A stretch of 63,984 nucleotides of DNA, the filler included. It is 13 parts of 13 records of this genome, joined end to end, with 100 filler letters (N's around TTAATTAATTAA, not from the genome) between each part and the next. Parts side by side here need not be neighbours in the genome. Positions count along the whole stretch, not along the records: positions 57,048 to 60,091 come from SRR7504441_9733; 12 more parts are not named here. One strand, given 5' to 3'. The notes below the pieces were generated by a model that saw only the letters and a list, made by a program, of their open reading frames with translations, was not told the DNA's origin and made no database searches. Shown here in pieces: positions 3,937-63,791 of this stretch. The position numbers were made by a program, and so were the translations under genes. The stretch's first letter is position 1; each line of letters opens with the position of its first letter.

Positions 3937-6267
3937 ACGGTCCTACTGATCCAGCCTCGGTGTTCGCGGTCGAGCGGGCGTGCAATCGCGCCCAGATAGA
4001 CGCGGCCATCAGCCAGTGCACCGCTCGCGGGGCCAAATTCGAGGACCCTGAATTCCCGGCGGGACCCCGGTCGATATCCCGCCCGCCGCACTCGAGGCCC
4101 AGCTGGGGGGAGGTAGTGGAGTGGGCACGGCCGAGCGCGAGTGCCCAGCTGTTCATAGGGGGACACGATCCCAACGATATCCAACAGGGTGCGCTGGGCG
4201 ACTGCTGGCTGCTGTCAGCCATGTCTGTGGTTGCCACCCAGCCGGCGATCATGGAGCACATGTTCGTGGAGGCCCGGCCGGACATAGGGCTCTATGTAGT
4301 ACAGTTCTTCAAGTGTGGGCAGTGGGTGCAGGTCATGATTGATGACCGGCTGCCCGTGGTGCCCAAAGGCTATCGGGTGGGTAACCTCAGAACGGGCGAC
4401 TTCATGCTCGGGCACGGCTCGGACATGAACGAGCTCTGGGTGCCCCTGTGCGAGAAGGCGTATGCCAAGCTTCATGGGTGCTACCAAGCCCTCGACGGAG
4501 GCGGTCAGCACAGCCCCAGGCCCAGCCGGCCGAGCGCGGTGGGCAGGGGTCGAGTACGGGCTGCGAGATCTATCCAGCGCCGCGCCTGACAGCTGCAGCT
4601 GTCAAGATCTGGATCCGGAGTCGTTCGAGGAGCTGCTCACCGACGTGGACCCTGGCACTGTTGTGATGGGCGGGTTCGCATGCATGGACAAGGGGCGGGC
4701 GAGCGAGTCTGAGCTGGCCAACGGACTGATCACCGGGCATGTAACCTCCCGGGCTAGACCGGTCGCTGAGCTGGAGGCGACAGGCTTATTCGCTACTCGG
4801 GATGGGTACGAGCGCCGATGGCGTCCGAGTGGTCAGGCTGCGCAATCCGTGGGGGCGCGGCGAGTGGAACGGCGACTGGTCTGATACGTCTAGCCGCTGG
4901 AACTCGGCCAATCGGCGTGCGTTGAATTACTCTCCAGATCAGACCGACAATGGCGAGTTCTGGATGAGTGTGCCCGACGCTCTGAGGCAATTTACTCAGT
5001 TCTACTGGGCGGAGCTCTTTCCGCACAGCTGGTCTCGTATGAGGGTGGCAAATCAGTGGAAAGGTCGGTCAGCAGGCGGATGCGTCAATCACGACAGCTG
5101 GGCACGCAACCCACAGATGTTACTGGAGGTGCCACAGCCCATCAAATCTCAGATTGTACTGACCCAGGAAGACGCGAGGCTCACTCCACTGAGCCAGAAG
5201 CACCACATTGGGTTTTATGTGCTGACAACCGACGATGGCCGGCCCAAGAAGCGCTGCTTCAAATCGGACATGGTTTGCCAGTCAGGTCCGCTGGTCAACA
5301 AGCGCGAGGTCTCGTGCGACATCGATCTGGCAGCCGGGCGATATTTGGTGGTGCCAAACACTTTCGATCCCGGCGAGGAGACTTCCTTCTTCATCACCGT
5401 GTTCTCTGATCGGCCATGCAGGTCACGTCTTGCTACTGTTTTAAGCGGATCTGGCGGGTGTGCTGACCAGTCGTGCGCAGGCTGGGTGGTGGAGTGGAGA
5501 TGGCAGCATCTGAGCCTGCTAGAGGGATGCCAGAGACCAGCTCGCACGGTACCACCGTTTAGCCTTGGCGACCGGTCGAGCGGCTGTCGGCCAGTGGACG
5601 GCCCGGCGCTCGACAGAAGTCATTCGTGGGAGGAGGAGTTCAACGATGAGTTGGATGACAATGAGCTCGACGACTTCATGTGGCAACAGGCGCTCTGGAC
5701 AGTTCGAAGCAACACCACAGACTATTTCCCTGATTCCAAGAGCATCCGGCCTGCTCCTCCCCCGCCGGTGCATCGCGGGTGAACTGGGCTGACGGTGGGC
5801 AGCCGGAGGAGGTGTTTGTGCCGGAGGACGACCTGCAGCTGCAGGGAGGCCGACCGTGCCCCAAGTGCGGTGGGGCTGGGTTCGATCCTAAGAAGCCCAA
5901 GAAGCAGTGCAAGAAGTGTAAAGGCAGGCCAGCGGAGCAGGGTAGTGCTGACCAGCTGTCCTGGCAGGGATGGGCTTCTTTGCTGACTCTGGCCGCCCTA
6001 CATCTGGCAGCATCAAAAAGAAGAAGAAGACCAAAGCTGAGAAGAAGGCCAAGAAGGAGAAGCGCGAGAAGGATAAGCGACCTAAGAGCCCAAAGAGGGA
6101 GAAATCCGAGAAGAGGGGGAAATCCGAGAAGAGGGAGAAATCCGAGAAGAAGGACAAGAAGGACAAGAAGGAACCCAAGAAGGATAAGGGAAAGAGCAAG
6201 GTATGCGCTCAGCCGATGCTGCTCTATAGCTATAATCCGCTTGGGCTTGCAGGAAAAGAAGAAGTAG
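3937..6267 (+). CDS. Calpain (CysPc + calpain III domain) with CxxCxGxG zinc finger and Lys/Glu-rich tail, 5' truncated
   Basis: DIQQGALGDCWLLSA (catalytic Cys), ITGH|AYSLL (His), LRNPWG (Asn). Domain III motifs W..RSAGGC..NPQ and YLVVPNTFDPGEE. Several short introns. Confidence 0.92.
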
Positions 6268-35948: not shown

Positions 35949-37280
35949 TCAACGCAACCACTTGTGTAGGATTGCGAGCTCGTTTGCAAAACAAGTCGCT
36001 CCCCGTGGTTGACTCCGGTAGACACTTTGCAGCTGCTCCAGCGCCGCCATCACATCGGGCAAGACGCCCATGACCTCCAGTTTGCGCAGACACGCTGGAC
36101 AGAGCAAGAGCGGGACCGCCCGGCACTCGTCTATTCCATCTACGTTGTTCATCAAACACGGCTCGTTCTCACAACTTGCAAGCCCACAAGCCACTGCGAA
36201 ACAACCGCCGAGCAGCAGCTTGATGAAGCACCGTAGCCTTTCGTCGTCGCTCTCAAAGGCGGGCTCGTGAGTCAGCATGTACGTACTCAGTACGAAATGA
36301 TCCAAGTTCTGGTCCTCGCGATTTGAATACAGGTCACTGAAGCACCAGGCGAGCCCCGAGTCGCCGTCTTGGTCCCATGACCCAAGGTGAGCAGCCACGA
36401 TGTGTACGGTGGCCACATATTCTCGGCCAGTGGCCCGTGACGCTCCGAGCCCGGCATCGGCAAGTACACCCGAGTTCAGCTGCCACGCGCCGGTAGCTTC
36501 ACATCGCCGGACCTTAAACCCAGGCGGCACCAGCCATGTGTCCAGGGGCATGCTCCGGTCTCGCCGCTGCTCTAGTGCAAAGCTGCCGCGTGCTGGCAGG
36601 AAGCACGCCAACGCCTGTTCTGCCACCGCCAGCCATCGCGCAAGCACAGCCCCTTCGTGCACTGCAAGCCTATCATCGCCAGTCAGGTGCACCACCTCCA
36701 ACTGCAGCGCCCCGGCCGCGTAGATTCGCTGCTCTTCCACGGACGCCACGTGCGCGTGCACAGGCTCGGAGAACCACAGTCTGAAAGCTTCCTCGCTGCT
36801 TCGCCGCCGCCGCTGAAAGTACACAGAAAGCTCGGACTCGGGCGTTGGTGCTTTGGCCAGCTTGCCGGAGCGCATCCGTTTGCCCCGTCCTAGCCGACGC
36901 TTAGGCTCTACAGGAGCGGGCGGCCCCAGCAGGCGGTGCAGCCAGGGCGCGCGAGGCTCCAGGTAAGGGGCCAGGGCGCACCAGCCATCCCAGGCGGTGC
37001 TCAATTTGCCGAGTGCTGCCGCTGCACCAGAGCAGTCGGCGTCGATGGCCTCGACCAGGCGCTCGTACCGGGTGCACCACTGGCGCCACCGGCAGTACAG
37101 GCGGATGGCCAGTCCCGGACTCACTGCCCGGGTGCCGGGGGGCAGACAGGCCGGCCGCCACCGGTCGAGTCCAACTATCTGGTGCTGCCAGCTCGCACAG
37201 GCCGCCCGGCAGCAGAGCAGCAGCCGGCTGTCCAGCGACAGGAACACCCGCTCCAGCAGCTCGCGCCCCAGGAGCAACAT
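35949..37280 (-). CDS. F-box + archaemetzincin (peptidase M54)-like domain lacking the zinc motif
   Basis: LGRELLERVFLSLDSRLLLCCRAACASW (F-box); WQLNS..SDLY..CLMNNVDGIDECRAVPLLLCPACLRKL (M54 C-terminal Cys cluster). Confidence 0.75.
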   Translation of the reverse strand: MLLLGRELLERVFLSLDSRLLLCCRAACASWQHQIVGLDRWRPACLPPGTRAVSPGLAIRLYCRWRQWCTRYERLVEAIDADCSGAAAALGKLSTAWDGWCALAPYLEPRAPWLHRLLGPPAPVEPKRRLGRGKRMRSGKLAKAPTPESELSVYFQRRRRSSEEAFRLWFSEPVHAHVASVEEQRIYAAGALQLEVVHLTGDDRLAVHEGAVLARWLAVAEQALACFLPARGSFALEQRRDRSMPLDTWLVPPGFKVRRCEATGAWQLNSGVLADAGLGASRATGREYVATVHIVAAHLGSWDQDGDSGLAWCFSDLYSNREDQNLDHFVLSTYMLTHEPAFESDDERLRCFIKLLLGGCFAVACGLASCENEPCLMNNVDGIDECRAVPLLLCPACLRKLEVMGVLPDVMAALEQLQSVYRSQPRGATCFANELAILHKWLR

Positions 37281-37354
37281 CTGTAGGCCGGTCCATCTGG
37301 CAACGGAAAACCGTTACAGATTCTGGAGCCACGGATTTGCACACAAAGCGTCGC

Positions 37355-38878
37355 ATGCGGCCACTCTCAACTGGTGCGGCCCTCTTTGGCCTCTGGAACT
37401 TGGGCGCCGACGCCCAGCCCTCGCGCGTACCATGGTACCAGGAGTCGGCTGTCCTCGCCGCCAGCGACGGAACGGCCCAGGACCACTTTGGCCGGGCCGT
37501 TTCCCTGGACGGCGACACCGCCTTGGTCGCAGCAGAACAGGCGGATCCGGGAGGCGTGCAAGACGCTGGCGCGGCCTATGTGTTTGTCCTGTCTGATGGC
37601 GCATGGAGAGAGCAGGCCATCCTCACCGCCAGCGACTGCTGCGGCAGGTCCCCGGATCGATTTGGATATAATAGCGTATCGCTGGACGGGGACATCGCAG
37701 TAGTTGGAGCAGCCCAGGTGGACATCGGTGCCGCGGACGAGGTCGGGAAGGTCTATGTGTTCGTCCGGACCGGAACCACATGGGCCGAGCAGGCCATCTT
37801 GCAATTTCCCGGCAGTGGTTCGGTATCTCCTTGGTTCGGTAATGCTGTGGCAGTGAGTGGAACCACCCTCATCGCCGGGGCTCCGTACGCGACCGTCAAT
37901 GGCGTGGAGCATGGGGCGGCCTATATATTTGTCCAGTCTGGAACCGATTGGGGGTTGGAAGCCACTCTCATTCCCAGCGACGGAGCCGCTTCGGATATCT
38001 TCGGCTTCCACACTTCCGTCGCGTTGTCCTGCAGCGGGATCGCCTTCGTCGGCAGCCAAGATGCTGACGTGAACGGGCTTGCTGATGCTGGGAAAGTCTA
38101 CGTGTACACCCGGACCGGAACCACATGGGCGCAGCAGCAGGTGTTGACCGCAAGTGTTCCCAGTGCGAACGCCAACTTTGGCCGTGATGTTGCTTTGGGG
38201 AGGTCTTCTCGGGAGGGGGTGTCTCGGCACGCTATTATCGGGGCCTACCACGAAACTAGCAATGGCCTAACCGAAGCGGGAAGCGCCTACGTGTTTGAAC
38301 AGTCGGAGTCCCAAGGCGTTTGGACACAGCAACAGGTGCTGACTGCAAGTGATGCCGTGGCGGGTGACAAGTTTGGTGGGGCCGTATCAGTGGACGGCGG
38401 TACTGCTGTGATCGGTGCGTTCGACAGAGGCGTATCCGAATCTGGACAGGCCTACGTGTTTCTCCAGTCAGGTGACACCTGGTATCAACAAACTATCCTT
38501 GAGCCTAGTCAGAGAGTTCAAAACCTAAGATTCGGGATTTCGGTGGCGGTCAGCGGGCCGAACGCTCTGATTGGAGCGTACAATGAGTTCGCCGTCGCAG
38601 ATCCCACGGGCCTAGTCGGCGGGCGGGCGTACATTTTTGGCGGCAATGTTCCGGGCCCAGCAGAAGACAGCTGGGTGTGGATAGTAGTCGGGTGCACAGT
38701 GGGAGCTGCATGCATTGCCTTTGCAGCTGTCTTAGCGTACTTGATCTTCCAAAAAACACAGGCCCCGGAGCCGGCGCAGCAATCTCAACCGGATCCTGAA
38801 AAGGCCGCTCACTTCTCTTCGCAAGACTCGGACACACCCGGACCGGTACAGCCTACGCAACCGCCGCCGCCGATGTAA
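37355..38878 (+). CDS. FG-GAP repeat beta-propeller type I membrane protein
   Basis: Signal peptide; seven L.ASD..D.FG.AV..G.TA..GA..G.AYVF repeats; TM WVWIVVGCTVGAACIAFAAVLAYLIF; Pro/Gln tail. Confidence 0.88.
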   Translation: MRPLSTGAALFGLWNLGADAQPSRVPWYQESAVLAASDGTAQDHFGRAVSLDGDTALVAAEQADPGGVQDAGAAYVFVLSDGAWREQAILTASDCCGRSPDRFGYNSVSLDGDIAVVGAAQVDIGAADEVGKVYVFVRTGTTWAEQAILQFPGSGSVSPWFGNAVAVSGTTLIAGAPYATVNGVEHGAAYIFVQSGTDWGLEATLIPSDGAASDIFGFHTSVALSCSGIAFVGSQDADVNGLADAGKVYVYTRTGTTWAQQQVLTASVPSANANFGRDVALGRSSREGVSRHAIIGAYHETSNGLTEAGSAYVFEQSESQGVWTQQQVLTASDAVAGDKFGGAVSVDGGTAVIGAFDRGVSESGQAYVFLQSGDTWYQQTILEPSQRVQNLRFGISVAVSGPNALIGAYNEFAVADPTGLVGGRAYIFGGNVPGPAEDSWVWIVVGCTVGAACIAFAAVLAYLIFQKTQAPEPAQQSQPDPEKAAHFSSQDSDTPGPVQPTQPPPPM

Positions 38879-40548: not shown

Positions 40549-41067
40549 ATGCAGTCGCCTTCACCTGGCCGCTTACTCGACCAGCTGTCGGCCCGGCTCG
40601 GCGATATCCGGCGGCAGGCCGAGCAGGCTGAGCAGCGGCTGCTAGAGATCCTGGCCGACCCGTCCGCCCCACCGGACCCCGACCAAATGAGCCGAGCTAA
40701 CAGCGGGGTGGCCTACTGGCTGGCCTTGGCCAAGCAGATAGAAATCGCCATCCAGGTGGAGCAAAGCAGGCCGGTGGTCCAGCCGCTCCCGCCGCCCAGG
40801 CCCGCCCGCCGGCGCGAAAACGCCCGAACTCGCGTCAATGAAGCGCCGAGCGAGCCGGAGCTCGAGCCGCCGGTGGTGTGGAGTCAGTCGCCGCGGGAAT
40901 CGACCGCCGGGAACAGTCGGGCGCCAAGCGGCCCGAGTGAGCCTGGGTCGGGCTGGTGCCCGCCCGGCAGGACGCTGGTGAGCCCGACAACGGGTCGCGC
41001 GCGGGGGGCGGGGCAGGCACCGCTGGCGGTCCAGCAGGCGCAGCCCATAATAATTTGGCGCTTTTGA
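40549..41067 (+). CDS. Small hypothetical protein
   Basis: Helical N-terminus. Two GTGAGC..GCAG intron-like segments near 40937-41016 show + strand polarity. Stop is at 41050 or 41067 depending on splicing. Confidence 0.5.
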   Translation: MQSPSPGRLLDQLSARLGDIRRQAEQAEQRLLEILADPSAPPDPDQMSRANSGVAYWLALAKQIEIAIQVEQSRPVVQPLPPPRPARRRENARTRVNEAPSEPELEPPVVWSQSPRESTAGNSRAPSGPSEPGSGWCPPGRTLVSPTTGRARGAGQAPLAVQQAQPIIIWRF

Positions 41068-44000
41068 GCCAGCTCCGATCGGCGGAATGATGAATGGCGC
41101 GTAATAGTGGCGATATCTACTTAGTGTACATTCTGCGGGGACGATGAAAGATATGGTCTCCTCTTTTTGCGGGTTGTAACCCAGGCTACTTGATCCTGGG
41201 ATCGTCATCTGAATTGAGGTCCTGAAGAAATTGACATCCCAGTTTTTATATGTGCTCTCTGTCCCATCGAGATTCTTGAGCAACGGTACTACAATCTGCA
41301 TGAAGCCGCTGGCCACATAGGGTTGGTTTGGAGAATGAATCTCATTCACCATTGCCCTAATGCATTCCTTGCTCTTATCTGCGTACCGATCTCCACGGAT
41401 ATCAAACCTGAAGTTGTAACTTCCTCCGGTGCCAACGTTCTCAGCCGAAAGTGAGGTCATGATGCTACCAGATACGGGTGGCCTTACGATGAATTTGCCA
41501 ATTGAATGACTAAATCCTTTTGTAGTAACTTCCCCTGGTATGGTGATGGTGACGGTTTCGGCAGTGACAACATCATACTCTTGGTTTCCGATGAAATCAA
41601 CGTTGAGTACTGTATTATTGTTTGTGGCGTACACCTTCGATAGATTTAGGTAGAGATCTTCCTTTGTCAGATCCTTGAATTTGTACTCGCCCTTAGCGTG
41701 CCTCTCCGGGTCGTTGCCTGTCACAACAAAGTTGTCAACTATGATTCTCTTTCGCTCATCAGTCATTTCCAGAAGCTGATCTCCGGCAAGGAAGATTTGC
41801 ATTGAGGTGTTTAGATTCTTGAAATCATTCACAAGCGGCCTTGAATACATATCACCAGTAACATTTTCCGTATTCCAGCATACTCCTATTGGATCACGCC
41901 GTATGTAAAACTGAGCACCAAACGGATATGCAGAACCGTACTCTGTCAAAGATGATGGAATAGAAATGACTATAGTTTCGGGTTCTGGAATAGAGTAGTT
42001 CATGGCACCAAGCTCGGGTAGTGTGATTTCAATCGAATCTCGCGTTGAAGCAGCTTGAATTCTATGAAGACCCTGCTCAGATCGCAAATAAGGTTTGAGC
42101 GAGGTCTCGAAACCAGCTTCGAATACATTTGTGGAAAGAAGGTTATCAATCAAGAGATTCTTGTTTTCGTTGGTCATTTCTAGGAAACGGTCCCCAGCAA
42201 TCCTTAAGTTGAGTGTCTGCCCTCCCTTTTGAATATCATTGCTGGTTGGTCGAGCAGGATACTCGCTAAGCACTGTGCCAGACGTCAGAAACACCATTTG
42301 AATTTCACGATGCTCAAGCTGCTTGCCCCAAGCTTGACGCATGGCTGCTATTCGGTCCGCGTAGTAGACTAGCAAAGAGCGTGAAACATCTGAGAAGAAC
42401 AGACCGGGCTGTGTTATCGCTGTCAGAATATTTTGTGTGTTGTAGCTCACAATTATAGACTCCAATTCATCCACCTTAGCATTCATGGCATCAATTCTTG
42501 AAATGAACACAGCCCTTGTCAATTGGTCAAACTGCATGTCGCGTGTATATAAATCGTAGACAGCGTCTTTGTATCCTTGCGCATTGGAGAGCTTTACCTT
42601 TTTCGCTGGGGGCACTATATTAGAATGGTTGCTGACAACAGAGGGAACCTTGAGTAGGAATGCAGCCCTGGTGGCGACCGCAAGATAAAAGTAAAGCCCT
42701 TCTTGAAGGACACTAGCTTTGATCATCTGAAATGCAGCGTTTACGTTTGAGATGCACTGCTGAATCACTGCCTTGCTGAGCCGTGTGCGATTTAGTTGCA
42801 GTTCGATGTGATATGCATCTTTAAGGCCATTGAAGATCGGGTAAACATTCAAATAGAAGTCATTTAGGAGAGTTAAAGTAAGCTCTGGATCGGTGGATGC
42901 TGCTATTTTTTCTGGGATGGCCCTGTATGCTAGCATAGCGCTCTCCTCCCAAGGTTGTATCATTCCTTCAGCAAACTGTTGGTGCAGCGGGGTTGCTCTC
43001 ATCCAGGTCTGGTTGCGCCTAATATTTTTTGCCCATAGCAAGGTACCATTATGGCCTGCACGATTGGCCCACATGAGATGCCGTGTTGAGTTGTACTTCT
43101 TAATCATGATGTCAGTTCCTCCTGGACTTTTGAGCGGTGCTCGCTTCACCTTGAAGCAATGCAGTACATCATCCGTCCTGAGTCGCACGACTTGCCAGTA
43201 CGGGTTGCCGAGCTGGTCCTTGAAATGAGCTATTTCAATGGTGGCAGCAAGGCCAAGAAGATGCATGGGCACATCATAAGTTGGGACTGTTATCACAAGC
43301 TGGCTTGGTGAAACAAAATTTGCTTTGCCTACATGCACTCGCCCATCCTCAACAGTCAAACGGAACGTCAAGTCTGACGAATTCACAAAGTACTTGCCCT
43401 CAATGAGAACACCCGAGCCTTGCAGGCACGACACCTTTGTGACATTGATCCCGTAGTAGATTGCTGCAACTGCGCACATGACCAACACAATCAACGCAGT
43501 GGAAAGATGACACTGGCCTAGATGGGACACACCGTAAACAAATCGGACGGGGTTTGAAACCGCGTCTTTGTTGTTGTAGTGCAGCGTCAACGAAGCGGTC
43601 ACGTTCTTATTTGTGAACGGGATTCGGGGGGGCTGAAAGCGCAAGACACGCGGAGAAATGAACGTCACGTTGAGCTTGTGGACAGTGCCTTCGATTGTGA
43701 CCTCCACATGCGAGTGTGATACGTTGATAAAGCTGCCTGGATCGGTTCCAGTGGGCCCAGATAGGTAGAGCTCTTGTTCCTGTTTGTAAGGAATGTACTC
43801 AGGACTGATCCTGTGAATTACAGGAGTTCCTGCAGGCACCCGATCGACTTAGGCACAGGCAAGGTGCTACGGTGGTTAGCAGTGCCACACACCGCAACCA
43901 AGCACGATGGCCACGGACTTCTCAATGACCATGAACTGTGGGCAGTCCATCCCGTAGTTACTCGAATTGGGCAAGTGAGAGCACTTTTGAAATCCCAGGC

Positions 44001-49961: not shown

Positions 49962-51817
49962 TCAAATCACGACCTCTCCTGCAAGCACAACCGTGGCCCG
50001 CCCGCCAAAGTGCACTCGCTGGTTATCCAAGTCCACTTGCACTATCCCGGCGCCCATCCGCTCCGAGCAATGGAGAGCAGTCAAGTGGCTTACCTGCAGC
50101 TGGGCTGCCCAGTAGGGTCCCAACGCTGCGTGAGCCTCGCAGTGGGCGGCAGGCTCGACCGGATATTCCCACGGCGCAAAGTAGCTGCCACAGCCCGATC
50201 ACACCCGCAGCTGGCACCAGCATCACCGGGAGCAGTATTTATATGTATCGCGGGTTTCGTCGGTAAGACGCGGGCAGAAGGTAGTCACGCACACCCCACA
50301 AAACTCCATCTGATTGGCCACGGCCTCCTTGGCTTCGTTGAGCTTATATGCGTCCACTTGCAGCCGCTCTAGCGCCTTGTCATTTCCGTCTGAGAGCTGC
50401 CCTGGCTCAGCATAGGCCACACCGGGCAGCCACCCTGATGATCAGCAGCTTGGTCGACTCGCAGGTCATCACGGCCTCAACTGGCAGCTGTCCGACTGCA
50501 GCCCGGATCACTGGGCTTGCCACCTGTCCGGGCTCGAGCTGCAGGCGCGGCCAGGCACCGGGAGCATCTTCTCAGGCAGTGGCGTCACAGGGTGAGACGG
50601 CATCTCTAGCAGCAGGCATGGGCTCGGATCAATGCTAAGCCGGTTCACAACCTGCCGCCCTGGTCAGCTCGGCTGGCCTGATAACGGGATGCCTGTCTGC
50701 CAAACGCCGTTTCGAAATGAATCGTCGACGATCTGTTGTGGTGCGCATCAGACAACACTGCTGCTGCAGCCAGCGTGGAATGGCAGTAGCCGCTCAGCTC
50801 CCCTGCAGGCGAGAACCACCTCAACTCAAACACGTCCGACCCCACGAACGTGTCGGCCTTGGTCAGAAGCCGGACAAATACCGTCTCACATATGTTCCGC
50901 TCGCCAGCCAGCCGGAGCATGGTGGACGTGAGCATCGGAGCGGATAGCGGGTGGCTGGCCGGGAGTGCCTCAGCCTCCTGCTTGGAGACTGGGATCATGA
51001 TCACCGCGGCCGGGCTGCCAGTGAACGGCACGCTGCTGAACACGTCCACCTGGAACATGTCGAGCTGACTCCTCCCACTCGCTGTGTAGTAGTCACACAG
51101 CCCCGGCCACAGCTCAGCGACCGGCTCCTGCGGGGCCTTGGCGCGCTTGGGATGCACGGCCGGCGCCATGTTGTCGGTGTATCCGCAGGTCCAACCCTTG
51201 TGGTGCTTGGCGGTCCCTCGGGCGACCTGGCACATGCATTGTACATTGAGCCCGTGCAGCTTGCAGAATTGAACTAGTGAGATGTCTGATGGGTTGAACA
51301 ATTCTCCCCCCGGGCTCTTGGCCCAGAACCCTTTGGGCGTCCGCCCCCGCTTCTTCGGCAGCTGTGCGCGCACATCCACCTTTGACACTTGCATCTCGGC
51401 CGCTGCGACCAACGCCAGCGTCTGGGGCGGTGGCAAGTCTATCGGCTCGATCGGCGGCATGGCTGTGTTGCTGCCCGACTCCAGGTCCAAGAATCCGCAA
51501 CGGTAACCCCTGTGCCCCTGGCTGTGCCCGAGCGCGGTCAGGTACATGACTGCGGTCACCAGGTCCCTCGTCTCGCAGTATTGGTTCAACGGCTCGTTCG
51601 GGGTTTGCCGCGGCTCATCCGGTGGCTCAACCCAGTACGGCCGGTTCGCCGGGTCGTATGCACAGGGCGGCGGGAAGCGCGGCGGGGCGCTTTGGTTTGG
51701 GGTGGGCTCGAGCGGTTGGGTGGGTTTGACTGGACTGGATTTGGTTGGCAGCGAGGAAGGCTCGGGCGGGAGCTCTGCAGCAGGAGTGGCCCGAGCGGAG
51801 CGGCGAACCATCGGCAC
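49962..51817 (-). CDS. PhzF/PBLD-family protein with N-terminal AT-hook and homing-endonuclease-like DNA-binding domain
   Basis: FQVDVFSSVPFTGSPAAV, NICETVF, ELRWFSPAGE, SR|YFAPW, LGPYWA, VHFGGRATVVLAGEVVI*; upstream KKRGRTPK and SPGGE..FCKLHGLN..M..VARG...HHKGWTC. Confidence 0.82.
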
Positions 51818-57047: not shown

Positions 57048-57110
57048 CTTGCCTATTTAGGGAATAATGGGGCGTCATGCTTGCCTGATTAGGGAATGAG
57101 CGGGTTGCAG
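57048..57110 (+). mobile_element. Repeated intron, family B (partial, contig edge)
   Basis: CTTGCCTATTTAGGGAA..GGCGTCATG..CTTGCCTGATTAGGGAA..CAG. Confidence 0.6.
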
Positions 57111-59836
57111 GTCCTAAAACTGGACGGCTCAGCTGTATCCCCTGAGGAAGCCGAACTGATCGCCCGCGCCTATGCCGACCTTCCCGCTGACCCCACATTC
57201 GAGCAGGCATTCTAACCGCATTTCAACCCGCTTTCTAACTGTTTCCTGTCAGGCCGAATCGAGCCTGCTTGCTGAAGGCTGGGCAGCGCTCCCGAAGGAT
57301 TCGATCGGGCTTGTCACGATGCACACAATCCGGTCCAATTTTAAGATGCTCCGAGGGCTGCTCGGCATAAGAGGCCAGCCAGCCCCCGCAGAGCCCGGCC
57401 CCTTGAGCGCGGAGAGGCTGAATAATAGCTATTTCCTGGAGCTTCGCGACAAAGTGCCCAACCGACTTTTTAACTGCTTTTAACGGCTTTTCAGGTGCTT
57501 TCGGGCGATCCGGAGGCGCTGGCTGCTGTTACTCCGGAGGCGGCGGAGAGCAAGTTGAAGAGCAAGCTGAATCAGTTATTCGATTTAATTGATTTCGATA
57601 AAGACGGCCAACTGACATATGACGAGATTGAGAGAGTTATCGGAAGGTAACTGTCAGATTTGTGGCCTGAGACCGGCCGAGCGCGGTTGCAGGCCGAATC
57701 TGCTGATGCTACTGGCTCAGATTCCCGGCGGGCTGCCCGGGCACACCCCGCGCCAACGGCAGGTATGTTAACACCAGCTTGCCTGATTAGGAAATATTGG
57801 GACGTCATACCTGCCTGATTAGGGCATGTTGGCAGGCGGTGAGTCGGGCCGAGTTTATGGACTTTTTCGATAATCAAGTTTCCGTTATTGGGCCGGGCTT
57901 AACTTTCAAGCTGGTGGCGGCGCTCTGTCAGGACGAGGGCAAGAACCGCCAGGTGCCTTCCAAATAAGGAAATTTGGGACGTCATACCTGCCTGATTAGG
58001 GAGTGCAGTGCACGCTCCAGGCTGGGAGCAACTTTGAGCATGAAGTGACGCGAGTCTACACGCTGCTCGACGCCAACATGGTGTTAAGCGCACCTTCCTA
58101 ATAAGGAAATGATCTGTTAACAGGACCATTCGGTCGACTCGGACGAGCTGCGCGCCGTCTGGGGCCAGAGTGGGTCGCTTCTTGCTCGGGCATTGGATGT
58201 CGACTCCAACGGGCTCATTTCGCTCACGGAATGGAGAAGGTTCTGGGGGCAGGTACTTGCCTAATTAGGAAGTTTGGGACGTCAGACTTGCCCGATTAGG
58301 GAATAATAATCCGGGGCAGCTGGCGGCCAATCAGGGCAATGCGCTGGCGGATTATCAGTTGGGCTTACTCACGGCGAGAGTTGAGAAATGCCTCAAAGTG
58401 CCGGCCCAGGTGCAGGCCAGCTGCCTAGTTATGGAATGATTCGGGTTCAGGTGCAGAGGCTGTCGACCGAGCTTGCCAAGGAGCATCCGGGCGCGCTTTA
58501 ACGGCTCTTAACTGCTTTTAACGGCTTTTCAGGCGCCGAGTACTCGAAACTTGAAATGGCTCTGCTCTCGCCCAAATTGCACCAAGTGGCTGTTGGGATT
58601 TGAAGTGGCACTAACGGACTTTTAGGTGGCGGTTGAGGCTTTTAGGATCGTCGACTCTGATCGAAGCGGCACGATAGAAAAGCCGGAGCTTTTCTCGCAG
58701 GTGCGCCTAATTTTAGCAAGTGCTGACCGGCACAGTCGCCTAATTAGGGAATAATCAGGTTAATGCTGAGGGTGGGCAGGGCACTGCGCTGCAACCGACA
58801 GCGGAGCGGACGCTGAGGTTATCTCCCGGGGAGGAAGTGCTGCTGGTGCTTTGGAAGGTGTGTTAAGTGTACCTTCCTTATAAGGGAATCATCTGTTAAC
58901 AGGTGCTCGATCAAGACGGCGACAACAAGGTCAGTTCAGACTGTGTTATTTATACTTGTATCTAGCTAATGCTGTGGTCTGCTTCTCTCGCCCACAAGAC
59001 CTTGTTAAGGATACAAGTAGCAGCATAGAGCTACACATAGCTAGGTGGTGAGATATCGGCCTACAGGTGAGTCTGGACGAGTGGTGCCTCTTCTGGCAAT
59101 GGGTGAGACTTTCAGCAACCGACTCTAACTGACGTGCGACTTTCAGGTCCAACATGAGACTTCCGCCGAGGAGTGCTTGTCTGGGCTGGAACTGGTTATT
59201 AGACAGCTGTCGCTCCCGGCCCCACCGGCCCCCGCGTGGGAGCTCTCGACCAGCGCGCTGCAGCTGGCTCGAAAGGCGTGTTAAGCGCACCTTCCAAATA
59301 AGGAAATGACCGGTTAACAGGGGTTCGCGATGCTCGATCTCGACCAGAACGGCACCATATCTCGGATCGAGCTCGCCAGTCTCAAATGCAATTGGGGACT
59401 ATTTTTTGTGCCGGCCCTTCAAGGGATACCCTCAGGTCCCTGACAACCAGAGCTGTTTTAAATCAAAAATGACGTTATTTGGGAGCAGATGAGGCGTTTC
59501 GGCGGGTGTGGCATCGGATGGATCCGAACGGGGACGGCCAAATAACGGAAGACGAGTGGCTCTGCTTTTGGGAGCATCTTCAGTCGGAGGCGGATCCTCA
59601 CGAGTGCGAGGTCCTACCTAGTTAGGGAATAAGAGGCGTCACACCTGCTTAGTTTGGGACTAATTTGAGTCCAGACTGAGCGGATTCAGGTGGCTTTGGC
59701 GCTGGTGTGTCACGAGCTGGCTGCACAAGATACCACAGCTGTCCCGTATGCCAGGTACGTGAGTCGATGGACGTGGCTAAGGTAATGGTTGGGTGACAGA
59801 GGTCTAAGGGAGAGCGAGTTGCTCGAGGCTCGTTGA
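57048..59836 (+). CDS. Multi-EF-hand protein with about 19 introns, 5' truncated
   Basis: Manual splicing restores a continuous frame with EF loops DFDKDGQLTYDE, DANM|DHSVDSDE, DVDSNGLISLTE, DSDRSGTIEKPE, DQDGDNK|VSLDE, DLDQNGTISRIE and DPNGDGQITEDE. Confidence 0.85.
57454..57494 (+). repeat. Repeated intron, family C
   Basis: Ends TTAACTGCTTTTAACGGCTTTTCAG, identical to the end of intron 58491-58532. Confidence 0.65.
57763..57835 (+). mobile_element. Repeated intron, family B
   Basis: Two GCCTGATTAGG cores around TTGGGACGTCATAC; also carries TGTTAACA. Confidence 0.68.
57953..58008 (+). mobile_element. Repeated intron, family B (with family A core)
   Basis: CCTTCCAAATAAGGAAAT + TTGGGACGTCATACCTGCCTGATTAGGG. 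Confidence 0.68.
58081..58123 (+). mobile_element. Repeated intron, family A copy 1 (candidate introner)
   Basis: G-TGTTAAGCGCACCTTCCTAATAAGGAAATGATCTGTTAACA-G; it splits an EF-hand loop. Confidence 0.75.
58253..58319 (+). mobile_element. Repeated intron, family B
   Basis: CTTGCCTAATTAGGAAG-TTTGGGACGTCAGA-CTTGCCCGATTAGGGAA. Confidence 0.68.
58491..58532 (+). repeat. Repeated intron, family C (GC-AG)
   Basis: Three tandem 10-nt units T(T/C)TTAAC(G/T)GC followed by TTTTCAG. Confidence 0.65.
58858..58902 (+). mobile_element. Repeated intron, family A copy 2
   Basis: 41-nt core 58861-58901 flanked by GGTG on both sides. Confidence 0.75.
59276..59320 (+). mobile_element. Repeated intron, family A copy 3 (GC-AG)
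   Basis: 41-nt core 59279-59319 flanked by GGCG/GGGG; the GC donor is needed to keep frame. Confidence 0.72.
59611..59689 (+). mobile_element. Repeated intron, family B (diverged)
   Basis: CCTAGTTAGGGAA..GGCGTCACACCTGCTTAGTTTGGGA. Confidence 0.55.
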
Positions 59837-60191
59837 TCCATCGTCAGTGGGCCATTCATCAGGCATTCATGATTGAGCACTTAGGTCGCCGTGATTAATT
59901 ACAATTAAGGCTAGAACATAGTCTCAAAAGAGCACATTGAGCTTTAAATATTAGTTCGATCTACTGTAGACATACTCGTAGTTTAAGCTGACTAATGCTG
60001 ACGGGTTAGCCATTTGAAGGGTGGGCAAAGACTTACTTGTAATATGTTCATGTGGCCTGGCGGGTGGACAAGGAGGCGGTGTGTGCCCCGANNNNNNNNN
60101 NNNNNNNNNNNNNNNNNNNNNNNNNNNNNNNNNNNTTAATTAATTAANNNNNNNNNNNNNNNNNNNNNNNNNNNNNNNNNNNNNNNNNNNN

Positions 60192-61669: not shown

Positions 61670-62365
61670 TTACGTGCCTTCAACGCCTTCAGGTGTATCA
61701 GGCGCCTCCTCGCACGTAGCAAAATCAAACGTGCTCGGGATGGCCTCCGGATAATTCGCGAAATAGGCAGGGAGCAGCGCCTCCCCGGCCGGCACCAGAA
61801 TGGCCACGGCCACCGGCAGCATCTTGCCCAGGTCTGCCATCGTCAGATGCAGGAATTCCTCCTCTTCGGGCTCCAGCCGATCCCCCGCCGCTCTCCGGGA
61901 CAGCAGCGGCTTGCACGCCTCGGCGTTGGCAGCCAGTGCATCCATCCCGTTGGCCAAAGGCCGAGAGGCCCGGTGGGCACGGTTCGAGAGCCCCTCCATT
62001 CGGGCGCTGGCTGCGGCGGCCATGCGGGCACCCAAGGCATCGATTTGGCTCAGCGGAGACTCGAACAGGGAGGTCAGTGCGCTGGGCTGCGCGGCAGCCT
62101 GGAACCCGATCCGGAGCGGCCGACCGGCCTGTCGGATGGCCTCCACCACCTGGCTGAACGGCTGGCCCGCGGTGGATTCGCCATTCAGGTGCACTAGCAG
62201 CATGCCCTCTGTCAGCTGCCCCTCCAGCGCCGCGCTCTTGACCTTTGTGATTCTGGCCGGCCCCGACGGCCCGGCCGCCCCGAGCTCCAGCCCGAGCGGC
62301 CCGGGCTCGGTCCAGCTGTGCTCCACCACCTCCAGCACCTTGTCCTTGTTCCTGATGAGGCCCAC
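61670..62365 (-). CDS. PDZ + LETM1-like domain protein, start codon unresolved
   Basis: GPLGLEL..LVHLNGES..FSQVVEAIRQAGRPLRIGF (PDZ); EEEFLHLTMADLGKMLP..VPAGEALLP..PEAIPSTF (LETM1-like). Confidence 0.72.
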   Translation of the reverse strand: MGLIRNKDKVLEVVEHSWTEPGPLGLELGAAGPSGPARITKVKSAALEGQLTEGMLLVHLNGESTAGQPFSQVVEAIRQAGRPLRIGFQAAAQPSALTSLFESPLSQIDALGARMAAAASARMEGLSNRAHRASRPLANGMDALAANAEACKPLLSRRAAGDRLEPEEEEFLHLTMADLGKMLPVAVAILVPAGEALLPAYFANYPEAIPSTFDFATCEEAPDTPEGVEGT

Positions 62366-62384
62366 TTTTTTTCCAGCCAGCTCG

Positions 62385-63791
62385 ATGATGGCGGGGTCAT
62401 CTGCGACGGCCGAGGGTTGTTGGGACGAGCTGTACGACCTCGTTGTGATCGGGGCCGGGCCGGCCGGGCTAGGGCTGGCGGCGCACGCGGTGGAGCGCGG
62501 GCTGCGGGTGTGCTTGCTCGACCGGAATCTCGACCGGCCGTGGCATTGCACGTACTGCAACTGGACTGACGATCTGGACCAGATAGCCTGGCTCGACCAG
62601 CCACACCAGCTGTTCGACGTGCGCTGCCCGGAGACGATCGTTCGTTACGCCGACGGCGGGACCGAGCGGCTCGGTCAGGGGTACGGCCGGATTGACGGCC
62701 CTCGGCTCCAGCGGCAGCTGCGGGGCGTGTTCGATGCCAGTGGGCGTGGGAAGGCGGTGCAGGCGTCGGCGGACCGGGTGGAGCACTACGAGGAGAGCAG
62801 TGCTGTCTGGTGCCGCGGGCTGGACCGGCTGCTGGCCGGGCGCGTGGTGGTGGACTGCAGCGGGCACTACAGCCATTTCCTGGACTACGCCGCGGGCGCG
62901 AGTCGCAAGTGGCAATCTTTCCACGGGGAGGAGCTCCGGTCGGCCGAGCCGCACGGGTTTGACACCCGCCAGATGGTGCTGTTTGACTGGCGCCAGCCGG
63001 AGCCGTCCGACGCGCTCCCGCCGCTGTTTGCGTACATCCTCCCCATCGACCAGCACACAGTGTTCGTAGAAGAGACCTGCCTGATCTCGCCCGGACGCGT
63101 CAGCCTGGACGCGATCGCCCGGCAGCTGCAGCACCGGAAGCGGGCGCTTGGGCTGGCCGGGGCCGAGGTGATCAGCAGCGAGAGCTGCAGCTTCCCTATG
63201 GGCGGTGCACTGCCTGTGCTCCCGCAGCGCGTGCTCGGGTTCGGGGCAGCCGCCCGGATGGTGCACCCGGCCACCGGGTACAGCGTGGCGTACTCGCTCA
63301 GGATGGTCCCGCGGCTGGTCGACTGCCTGTGCGATTCGATCAGGTCCGGTCGGTCCGGCCCGGAGCTTGCCGCCCGGGCCTGGGAGCAGGTTGTATGGCC
63401 GGCCGACAAGGTGCGGCTCTACCGCATCTACTCGATGGGCTCGCACGTGCTGACTCAGCTGAGTGTCGGGCAGCTGTGCGCCTTCTTCCGGGCGTTCTTT
63501 GCGACCGGACCGGCCAAATGGATGCCTTTCATGTGCAGGACTGACTCGGCCAAGCGGATTGTGAGCTCGATGGTCAATATGTTCCTGATAGCCCCGATGG
63601 AGATCAGGCTCCGGTTGGTGTGGGGCGCGGTCACAAACGGCGGGTTCGAGCTGGTGCTGGCAGTGCTAGCGGCCGTGTGGAAGGCGGATCCGACCGATGG
63701 CCAGCCACGCTCCGACCATCGGGACAACGAGCGGGAGCCCATGCTTAACCCAGCAAGTGTTGTGGTGAGTACGTCCGACACGCCGGCCTAA
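62385..63791 (+). CDS. crtL: Lycopene cyclase, CrtL/LCY-type
   Basis: YDLVVIGAGPAGL, Y..W.DD, GYGRID, MVLFDWR, F.Y.LP...VFVEETCL, E...FPMGG.LP, FGAAARMVHPATGYS; intronless. Confidence 0.9.
   Translation: MMAGSSATAEGCWDELYDLVVIGAGPAGLGLAAHAVERGLRVCLLDRNLDRPWHCTYCNWTDDLDQIAWLDQPHQLFDVRCPETIVRYADGGTERLGQGYGRIDGPRLQRQLRGVFDASGRGKAVQASADRVEHYEESSAVWCRGLDRLLAGRVVVDCSGHYSHFLDYAAGASRKWQSFHGEELRSAEPHGFDTRQMVLFDWRQPEPSDALPPLFAYILPIDQHTVFVEETCLISPGRVSLDAIARQLQHRKRALGLAGAEVISSESCSFPMGGALPVLPQRVLGFGAAARMVHPATGYSVAYSLRMVPRLVDCLCDSIRSGRSGPELAARAWEQVVWPADKVRLYRIYSMGSHVLTQLSVGQLCAFFRAFFATGPAKWMPFMCRTDSAKRIVSSMVNMFLIAPMEIRLRLVWGAVTNGGFELVLAVLAAVWKADPTDGQPRSDHRDNEREPMLNPASVVVSTSDTPA

Follow-up and report, generated by a model that had tools for sequence, protein, structure and literature searches.

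Where new introns come from has long been asked, and no source is better documented than introners. Here we describe a cluster of very short introns, predicted in a gene for a multi-EF-hand protein, that are built largely from shared repeat modules and so seem to have been copied instead of originating singly. The gene lies on a single contig of 3,044 nt (positions 57048–60091) in a stretch of 63,984 nt (the window), which consists of 13 contigs (3.0–8.1 kb) joined by runs of N around TTAATTAATTAA; distances and neighborhoods across these joins are meaningless, and the intron finding is confined to the one contig. A first-pass annotation of the window had pointed to two intron families here, A and B, and was largely correct: the observation is real and far above chance, and the cluster of repeat-built mini-introns is unusual. 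The reading toward which we lean, tentatively and with somewhat less than even confidence, is that these are introner-like elements: DNA-level copying, possibly only local, would have placed them in intron positions of the gene.

The elements of Symbiodinium and Polarella glacialis offer one comparison; there, a duplicated GHNN target is reported to supply the donor, the Symbiodinium type also having CT at +5/+6 and an inverted repeat that ends at the acceptor (Roy et al., bioRxiv 10.1101/2020.10.14.339549). As far as that account goes, the present introns resemble them in opening with a tetramer that also begins the following exon (4 of 17 here), in frequent GC donors, in the G after the acceptor, in their single orientation, and in belonging to a very intron-dense gene. 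They differ from them in that the tetramer is perfect in 4 of 17, CT occupies +5/+6 in 3 of 17 (I3, I5, and I10, of which only I10 also has a perfect tetramer), there are no GA donors, and the introns are 40–79 nt long with an internal palindromic unit and variable ends, in one gene. Symbiodinium and Polarella are dinoflagellates, and the host here is not established as one. Micromonas introners (IE-C/ABC-IE) are likewise repeat introns of lineage-specific sequence that cause premature stops on non-excision; IE-C averages 67 nt, and GC donors make up 53% in IE-A1, according to the descriptions cited (PMC3879977, PMC4540971). These elements are described as sharing structure but not sequence (PMC4540971). 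Unlike the introns here, they are spread over hundreds to thousands of genes, with virtually none in the low-GC region, in the same descriptions (PMC3879977, PMC4540971). The Micromonas branch-point motif GACTGACG is not part of A or B and occurs three times in the window, roughly the chance level, and the donor AG/GTGCGT (AGGTGCGT) has zero occurrences in the window.

Amoebophrya elements, as portrayed in PMC7789003, have mostly non-canonical splice sites and terminal inverted repeats of 8–20 nt. The likeness lies in direct repeats over the exon/intron boundaries (3–5 nt in Amoebophrya), hairpins joining the intron ends, no encoded transposase, a marine protist, and a GC content in the mid-50s (PMC7789003). 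In contrast, our introns comprise 14 GT–AG and 3 GC–AG, the terminal repeat of family A is 6 nt, and the palindromes of family B are internal (for the Amoebophrya side, PMC7789003 as cited). Fungi provide a same-gene case: PMC3609843 counts 82 intron duplications within genes in 24 species, at most 16 per species, half of them without duplicated flanks, and describes fungal introner-like elements as having stable predicted structure and being longer than regular introns. Near-identical introns within one gene are common to both, whereas here at least 12 of the 18 introns of one gene fall into families and are very short (fungal side from PMC3609843, in the part cited). BOC1 introns of Mamiellophyceae are also short (<75 nt) and numerous per gene, in a region with GC below the rest of the genome and a GC drop at splice sites, all of which is similar here, but they are given as singletons without mutual similarity and with GC below 43% (PMC3879977, as far as it describes them). 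In our gene 14 of the 17 complete introns are shorter than 75 nt, but only 2 of 18 have GC below 43% and most are family members; BOC1 introns are mamiellophyte, and nothing places this contig in a mamiellophyte.

Repeat modules in the predicted introns of an EF-hand gene

The exon/intron model was made by hand from the three-frame translation and then checked for stops. On the plus strand, on which all features below lie, coding pieces are broken about every 30–200 nt. Taking out 17 GT/GC–AG segments (40–137 nt) yields one frame of 543 codons with zero stops (57111–59754; 18 exons of 27–201 nt, 1631 nt when spliced), and one further intron, I0, the 18th, is truncated by the contig start. Predicted lengths are 40–79 nt, except for two introns of 110 and 137 nt. 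The 17 complete introns comprise 14 with GT–AG and 3 with GC–AG splice sites; the GC donors, at 57207, 58491, and 59276, are required for the frame, and no GT is usable at two of these. Phase 0 was found in 14 of 17 introns, and a G directly after the acceptor also in 14 of 17. GC content is 0.594 in exons (GC3 0.70) and 0.47 in introns, and GC by codon position (0.66, 0.42, and 0.70) is typical of coding sequence. PF00036 matches the single exon 59491–59610 (28.2 bits) and PF13405 the exon 57495–57644 (25.1 bits), while two canonical 12-residue EF loops are complete only with introns 58081–58123 and 58930–59066 removed; the protein has about seven EF-hands, and coding DEWxxFW motifs recur. 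At 59755–60091, a donor-like GTACGT followed by lower-GC sequence up to the contig end would mark either one more intron or the point where the gene stops. The segments are best read as spliceosomal introns of a multi-EF-hand gene of a GC-rich marine protist; their intron status is a prediction from sequence, from which we infer splicing.

That the segments are not functional introns at all, the gene being a decaying pseudogene with insertions, a contaminant, or an assembly artefact, strikes us as quite improbable. The frame is stop-free over its 543 codons only on removal of exactly these 17 segments, the EF loops are reconstituted across junctions, and the codon-position GC is that of a coding sequence, all of which tells against this alternative. 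It does fit two 151-nt fragments in one seawater metatranscriptome run (57853–58001 and 58065–58214), both of which are unspliced, running through I5 or I6 with no joints, and may be DNA or pre-mRNA; the same run, being independent, shows that the intron-bearing DNA exists in another data set, where the I6 region differs at 2 positions over 150 nt, and this intron is hence not an artefact of one assembly. The alternative would also fit the tetranucleotide profile of the contig, a check that the first-pass annotation had proposed, which correlates with the profiles of the other 12 contigs at r = 0.41 (0.53 for exons alone) against 0.60–0.72 among the others. The GC of the contig is 0.537, against 0.565–0.661 in the other 12. 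Finally, exon 2 (57253–57453, 67 aa) had no relative in two word-based protein searches or in a full HMMER scan of 1.84 billion representative proteins, and protein searches with the 107-aa frame around exon 2 and with exon 7 gave none. By these searches the N-terminal part of the protein is an orphan, and they yielded no orthologue in which to compare intron positions.

Both families rest on CYTKCCWRATWAGGRAAT, a unit of 18 nt whose 10-bp core, CCTRATTAGG, is palindromic. The core of family A and the unit of family B are each a variant of it, so that A and B form a single superfamily, and the two-family split of the first-pass annotation stands only as a division within it; that annotation had also overlooked the CTRAT core and the richness of the motif in stop codons, discussed below. 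Allowing at most 3 mismatches, we counted 14 occurrences of the unit, always on the plus strand and always within predicted introns (10 of them), whereas 0.62 copies are expected for the whole window and none of 100 shuffles reaches the observed total. The core (up to 1 mismatch) gave 20 strand-matches against 3.9 expected, again a count that 0 of 100 shuffles reached, and 19 of the 20 lie inside 57048–60091. The earlier claim that the core is found in no other gene of the window held up, the three matches elsewhere, at 62351 (1 mismatch) and at 50673 and 61754 (3 mismatches each), being at chance level. Taken alone, the motif GGRCGTCA shows only weak enrichment: it matches 11 times where 5.4 are expected, at least as many matches arise in 3 of 100 shuffles, and B introns hold 4 of the 11.

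Family A consists of one unit between GTGTTAAG and TGTTAACAG, and family B of two units, 31–32 nt apart, around TTGGGACGTCA; 5' and 3' end modules are common to introns across the two. A second family, C, has 10-nt branch-point-like repeats, TTTTAACGGC. The contig contains 62 maximal repeats of at least 9 nt, 30 of them intron–intron, and every repeat of at least 11 nt lies in introns or spans an intron junction; 9-mer pairs number 185, compared to 20 in shuffles. At least 12 of the 18 introns are family members, and the two long introns, I13 and I16, alone share nothing with the others. I5 (57953–58008) is an A/B chimera in which a family-A core replaces the first unit: its 18-mer CCTTCCAAATAAGGAAAT at 57956 recurs exactly at 59290 in I15 (family A), as the first-pass annotation had noted, its 28-mer at 57974 is identical to that at 57797 in I4 (family B), and the junction lies within AGGAAAT. 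With the shared 18-nt unit and the shared end modules, this chimera bears out the description of the set as modular and recombining.

Five introns had been assigned one equal layout of three parts, unit, spacer, and unit. The coordinates and motifs are right, but the layout is exact only in I4 (57763–57835). One mismatch in one unit separates from it both I0 (57048–57110; 5' truncated, with a unit, GGGCGTCA, a unit, and the tail GAGCGGGTTGCAG; mismatched unit CCTATTTAGG) and I7 (58253–58319; two units and GGACGTCA; mismatched unit CCCGATTAGG). I5 is the hybrid, and I17 (59611–59689) is a diverged B copy (66% in the repeat alignment, its unit having 2 mismatches), differing in all three modules and with a spacer that does not match GGRCGTCA. 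I4 contains TGTTAACA, as reported, and its ends, 5' (GTAT)GTTAAC and 3' TGTTGGCAG, resemble family A ends, placing B units inside A-like ends. Partial versions were confirmed in I8 (58410–58450), which has one unit and an I0-like tail, and in I11 (58701–58758), a diverged two-unit version (60% in the repeat alignment). Family A is represented by I6 (58081–58123, copy 1), I12 (58858–58902, copy 2), whose core CCTTATAAGG is a perfect palindrome and whose donor lies 2 nt upstream of the common GTGTTAAG, and I15 (59276–59320, copy 3), whose GC donor is needed for the EF-hand frame. Family C comprises I2 (57454–57494) and I9 (58491–58532, GC donor), which have a 26-mer in common. Loosely resembling these, and only tentatively C-like, are I1 (57207–57252; CTAAC repeats, GC donor), I10 (58586–58625), and I14 (59103–59146), which shares CAACCGACT with I2. 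I3 (57647–57692) is without a unit and has its 3' tail, GGTTGCAGG, in common with I0. The unique and longer I13 (58930–59066) and I16 (59379–59488; phase 1, without a junction repeat) carry no family module.

Junctions, intron positions, and a possible route of copying

Direct repeats at the intron junctions go beyond the splice consensus: they average 4.29 nt, compared to 3.37 nt for the 5' junction of one intron set against the 3' junction of another (permutation p = 1e-4). The longest are the 9-nt CAGGTGCAG at both junctions of I8 (58410), GGGGCAG in I7 (58253), and GGCAGG in I4 (57763). In 4 of 17 cases (I2, I8, I9, and I10) the intron and the exon that follows it open with one and the same tetramer (GTGC, GTGC, GCGC, and GTGG, the last extending to GTGGC), compared to 4.8% of mismatched pairs (p = 0.007). 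Target-site duplication, which is looked for in introners, is thus present in a loose form, the lengths being variable, and a duplicated target serving as donor would explain the GC donor at 58491. In the route that we envisage, very short non-coding repeat DNA would be copied into intron positions by insertion, and short junction duplications would supply one splice site, which would account for the GC donors as well as for the prevalence of phase 0. Chimeras would have formed afterwards, as copies recombined with one another or template switching joined them.

The exon flanks were not duplicated along with the introns: flank identity is 0.281 between same-family introns and 0.273 between other pairs. 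Duplication of gene segments was ruled out on this ground and because the repeats concentrate in introns. A scenario of tandem EF-hand modules, each of exon plus intron, in which the introns would be merely paralogous, we hold to be very unlikely. In its favor are the roughly seven EF-hands with their repeated DEWxxFW motifs, and also A copies 2 and 3, which precede an EF loop by 2 and 5 residues and have flanks of weak similarity, but flank identity equals background, family members are found at non-homologous sites (in the loop, before the loop, after the F helix, and outside EF-hands), and homologous positions carry different families.

The main rival to the introner reading is local turnover within the gene with no mobile element, in which old inherited intron positions would have had their sequences overwritten from neighboring introns by conversion, template switching, or repair synthesis. 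We regard this as possible but doubtful. It would accommodate the confinement of all copies to a 2.7-kb part of one gene, the 61 kb of other contigs having none, the crossover of the I5 chimera in the common AGGAAAT, the variable element ends and junction repeat lengths, and the occupation of homologous positions by different families (I2/I6 and I7/I14), and duplication of introns within a gene has been described as a class in fungi (PMC3609843, in the part cited). An 11-mer, CAGGCCGAATC, that spans the 3' junctions of I1 and I3 (57250–57260 and 57690–57700) also suits it, running into exons that are read in different phases (AES versus R-PNL); the copied DNA may reach a few bases into the present exon. 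Conversion, however, would need a seed, and the exon flanks offer no homology for one (0.281 versus 0.273); nor does it predict junction duplications above the splice consensus. Two further observations weigh against local turnover. The contig begins exactly at an 18-nt unit, which resembles an assembly break at a repeat also present elsewhere, and an 18-mer identical to the unit is found in tandem in two unrelated GC-rich contigs (L023 and L024, described below).

Several observations weigh against introner-like insertion. No A, B, or C copies were found in the other 12 contigs of the window (~61 kb). In searches with strict signatures, B had 0 matches in public metagenome, genome, and viral contigs, A had 0 in public genome and viral contigs, and C had 0 in public genome contigs. 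A looser two-palindrome pattern occurs elsewhere (see below), but the B spacer GGGACGTCA is in none of its 101 metagenome loci within the printed contexts, and a blastn-short comparison of the contig with these loci aligned the unit only. At least 11 related introns in one gene with none nearby is not usual for a dispersed introner. The lengths of the junction repeats span 0–9 nt, and the tetramer is perfectly repeated in no more than 4 of 17 introns. It is the core of the element that is conserved and its ends that vary, the reverse of a typical terminal-inverted-repeat transposon. As to positions, I2 (C) and I6 (A, between residues 4 and 5 of the EF-hand loop) lie at the same point of homologous EF-loop segments, with 71% identity over 24 nt in their downstream flanks, and I7 (B) and I14 both lie exactly two codons past the FW of the repeated EWxxFW motif, in the EF-hand F helix. 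Some intron positions thus look older than their present content; homologous positions with different families point to old positions, which fits replacement or insertion into existing introns. The two unspliced RNA-library fragments belong on the same side, as does a bias in the stop counts given below. The first-pass description of the modules as intron-forming finds indirect support in the junction repeats and the non-duplicated flanks, and the different families at homologous EF-hand positions tell against it.

The palindromic unit as a possible RNA signal

We considered whether the unit could act in the transcript. The unit contains a CTRAT branch-point-like core, which lies 14–25 nt upstream of the acceptor in B introns, and it carries stop codons in two frames; two units ~31–32 nt apart cover all three frames with stops, and pairing between them is possible. 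If retained, 17 of 17 introns would introduce an in-frame stop, compared to an average of 10.7 in shuffles, and 11 of 17 carry stops in all three frames, compared to 4.7; in both cases 0 of 2000 shuffles reach the observed count, although the in-frame count is partly biased, stops having helped to find the introns. In predicted folds, the ends of family A introns pair together (TGTTAA with TTAACA in I6) and so do the units of family B introns, as in I4, in which unit 1 pairs with unit 2 (–24.1 kcal/mol, z –2.41). Fold z-scores were –1.87 for I7 and +1.55 for I8, and the mean is a modest –1.1 or so across the 10 A/B introns, compared to +0.1 across the remaining 8. The helix between unit 1 and unit 2 has 0 compensatory pairs, with 83.3% of cells paired as against 84.4% in shuffles, so that pairing is not maintained by compensatory change as it would be in a structured RNA element and may be a by-product of repeating a palindrome; a search of Rfam gave no match. 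The RNA hairpin suggested for the palindrome by the first-pass annotation may form but finds no backing in covariation. Its other suggestion was a binding site for a dimeric transposase or recombinase; a role as a transposase-binding site is possible, and no transposase or autonomous partner is known for the element. We consider that the unit is probably kept for a role in RNA.

A role of this kind invites the thought that the motif is shared by convergence on a splicing or surveillance signal (a branch point, a hairpin, or a stop cassette) and not by common descent. The placement of the CTRAT core, the stop counts, and the folds that pair ends or units could all be so explained, and Micromonas introners share structure without sequence (PMC4540971, as far as cited). 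The extent of identity speaks against it: convergence cannot explain identical stretches of 18–28 nt that take in TTGGGACGTCATAC, a spacer without signal content. The helix without compensatory pairs, no better paired than shuffles, and the modest fold z-scores, some of them positive (I8), also do not fit, and we think this explanation unlikely.

Occurrences outside the gene and the setting of the contig

The looser two-palindrome pattern matched at least 101 metagenome loci and 16 viral loci, of which 9 of the 16 viral ones were inspected. When the whole window was compared with the 101 loci by ordinary blastn, there was no match at E 1e-5. Flanking bases that the looser pattern does not demand nevertheless recur in these loci; such flank matches are of borderline significance by a rough count and serve as leads only. 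Among them are those in L023 and L024, orthologous metagenome contigs of GC 0.65–0.68, which contain 4 and 5 tandem copies (1497–1568 and 959–1048, respectively) of the 18-mer GCTTGCCTGATTAGGGAA, equal to window positions 57079–57096. The copies are in frame on the opposite strand (as FPNQAS repeats) within a 647-aa open frame that encodes a cytosolic carboxypeptidase N-terminal domain. An extended motif, TTGCCTRATTAGGRAA, occurs in tandem arrays of unrelated GC-rich protist contigs and also in inverted arrays that flank a kinase gene beside a DVNP gene in giant-virus contigs. Protists and their large DNA viruses could therefore hold such a unit in common or exchange it, a reading that we think unlikely; that the element is mobile beyond this gene is our inference.

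The giant-virus-like loci have low GC (~0.3) and comprise L025, L051, and L063 from metagenomes, L107 and L108 on one 290-kb viral contig, and L114. In these, a DVNP-family gene (PF19060, E 4e-20 on L051) adjoins a protein-kinase-like gene. To either side of the kinase gene lie tandem arrays, inverted relative to each other, of (G/C)TTGCCTAATTAGGAAGG, their periods being 19–28 nt. Promoter, terminator, and cassette end are candidate roles for these arrays. The 17-mer CTTGCCTAATTAGGAAG in L107 equals unit 1 of the intron at 58253.

Other loci of the looser pattern are of several kinds. Degenerate 10-nt arrays (CCTAATTAGG, CCTAATTTGG, and CCTAATCTGA) lie no more than a few hundred bases from the ends of marine contigs (L003, L007, L013, L015, L035–L037, L047, L068, L076, L081, L088, and L095), with GC mostly 0.57–0.62 and 0.41–0.49 in L081, L088, and L095. 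They are followed by a conserved A/C-rich stretch and then a gene, and they look like a repeat, either dispersed or at chromosome ends, at which assemblies break. In the GC-rich contigs L040, L045, L049, L065, and L070, GCCTGATTAGGG adjoins telomere-like repeats of TTAGGG or TTGGGG; the ATTAGGG part of the unit accordingly resembles a telomere repeat. A recurrent locus that is unrelated to the introns accounts for many of the loose matches; in it, ATCAGTATTTACTAGTG precedes tandem repeats of 15 nt (GCCTGATTAGGGTTA or GCCTGATTAGGCTYA). This locus was seen in L005, L012, L017, L019, L027, L030, L034, L039, L054, L056, L060, and L064, in L069, L079, L086, L092–L094, and L097–L100, and in several viral loci (L112), and it is also present in viral contigs of 28–48 kb. 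Three CCTAATTAGG palindromes at a spacing of 14 nt are present in contigs of GC 0.66 (L020, L041, and L078), where this spacing, by our reading, would put stop codons in all six frames.

Elsewhere in the window, a lycopene cyclase is encoded at 61767–63791 (PF05834, 2e-70), and an Atlas search with this protein returned bacterial clusters only. A stretch at 4100–4500 is calpain-like by our reading of its translation, and a 15-mer common to the intron-bearing contig and contig 2 is calpain-like coding sequence. Further contigs encode an FG-GAP repeat protein and a TIG-domain frame (36905–38878 and 40642–43848). From its lycopene cyclase, calpain-like, FG-GAP, and TIG genes, the bin looks like a photosynthetic eukaryote or a mixture.

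A more specific version of the introner reading would make these ultra-short (~41–79 nt) modular introners of an undescribed kind, with a palindromic unit that serves at once as branch-point-like signal, stop cassette, and pairing module, and that spreads mainly within its gene by insertion plus template switching; we offer it as a speculation that is unlikely to hold as a whole. The value of the finding depends on the rest of the genome and on spliced RNA, since everything rests on one contig of 3 kb. Its interest is that nearly every intron in the gene derives from two sets of reusable modules, together with a visible chimera and junction duplications, and that unrelated content now occupies some homologous positions. 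The gene would thus be a compact case in which to ask whether short introns are created, replaced, or homogenized by copying, and it would help to test the minimum size of an intron-generating element.

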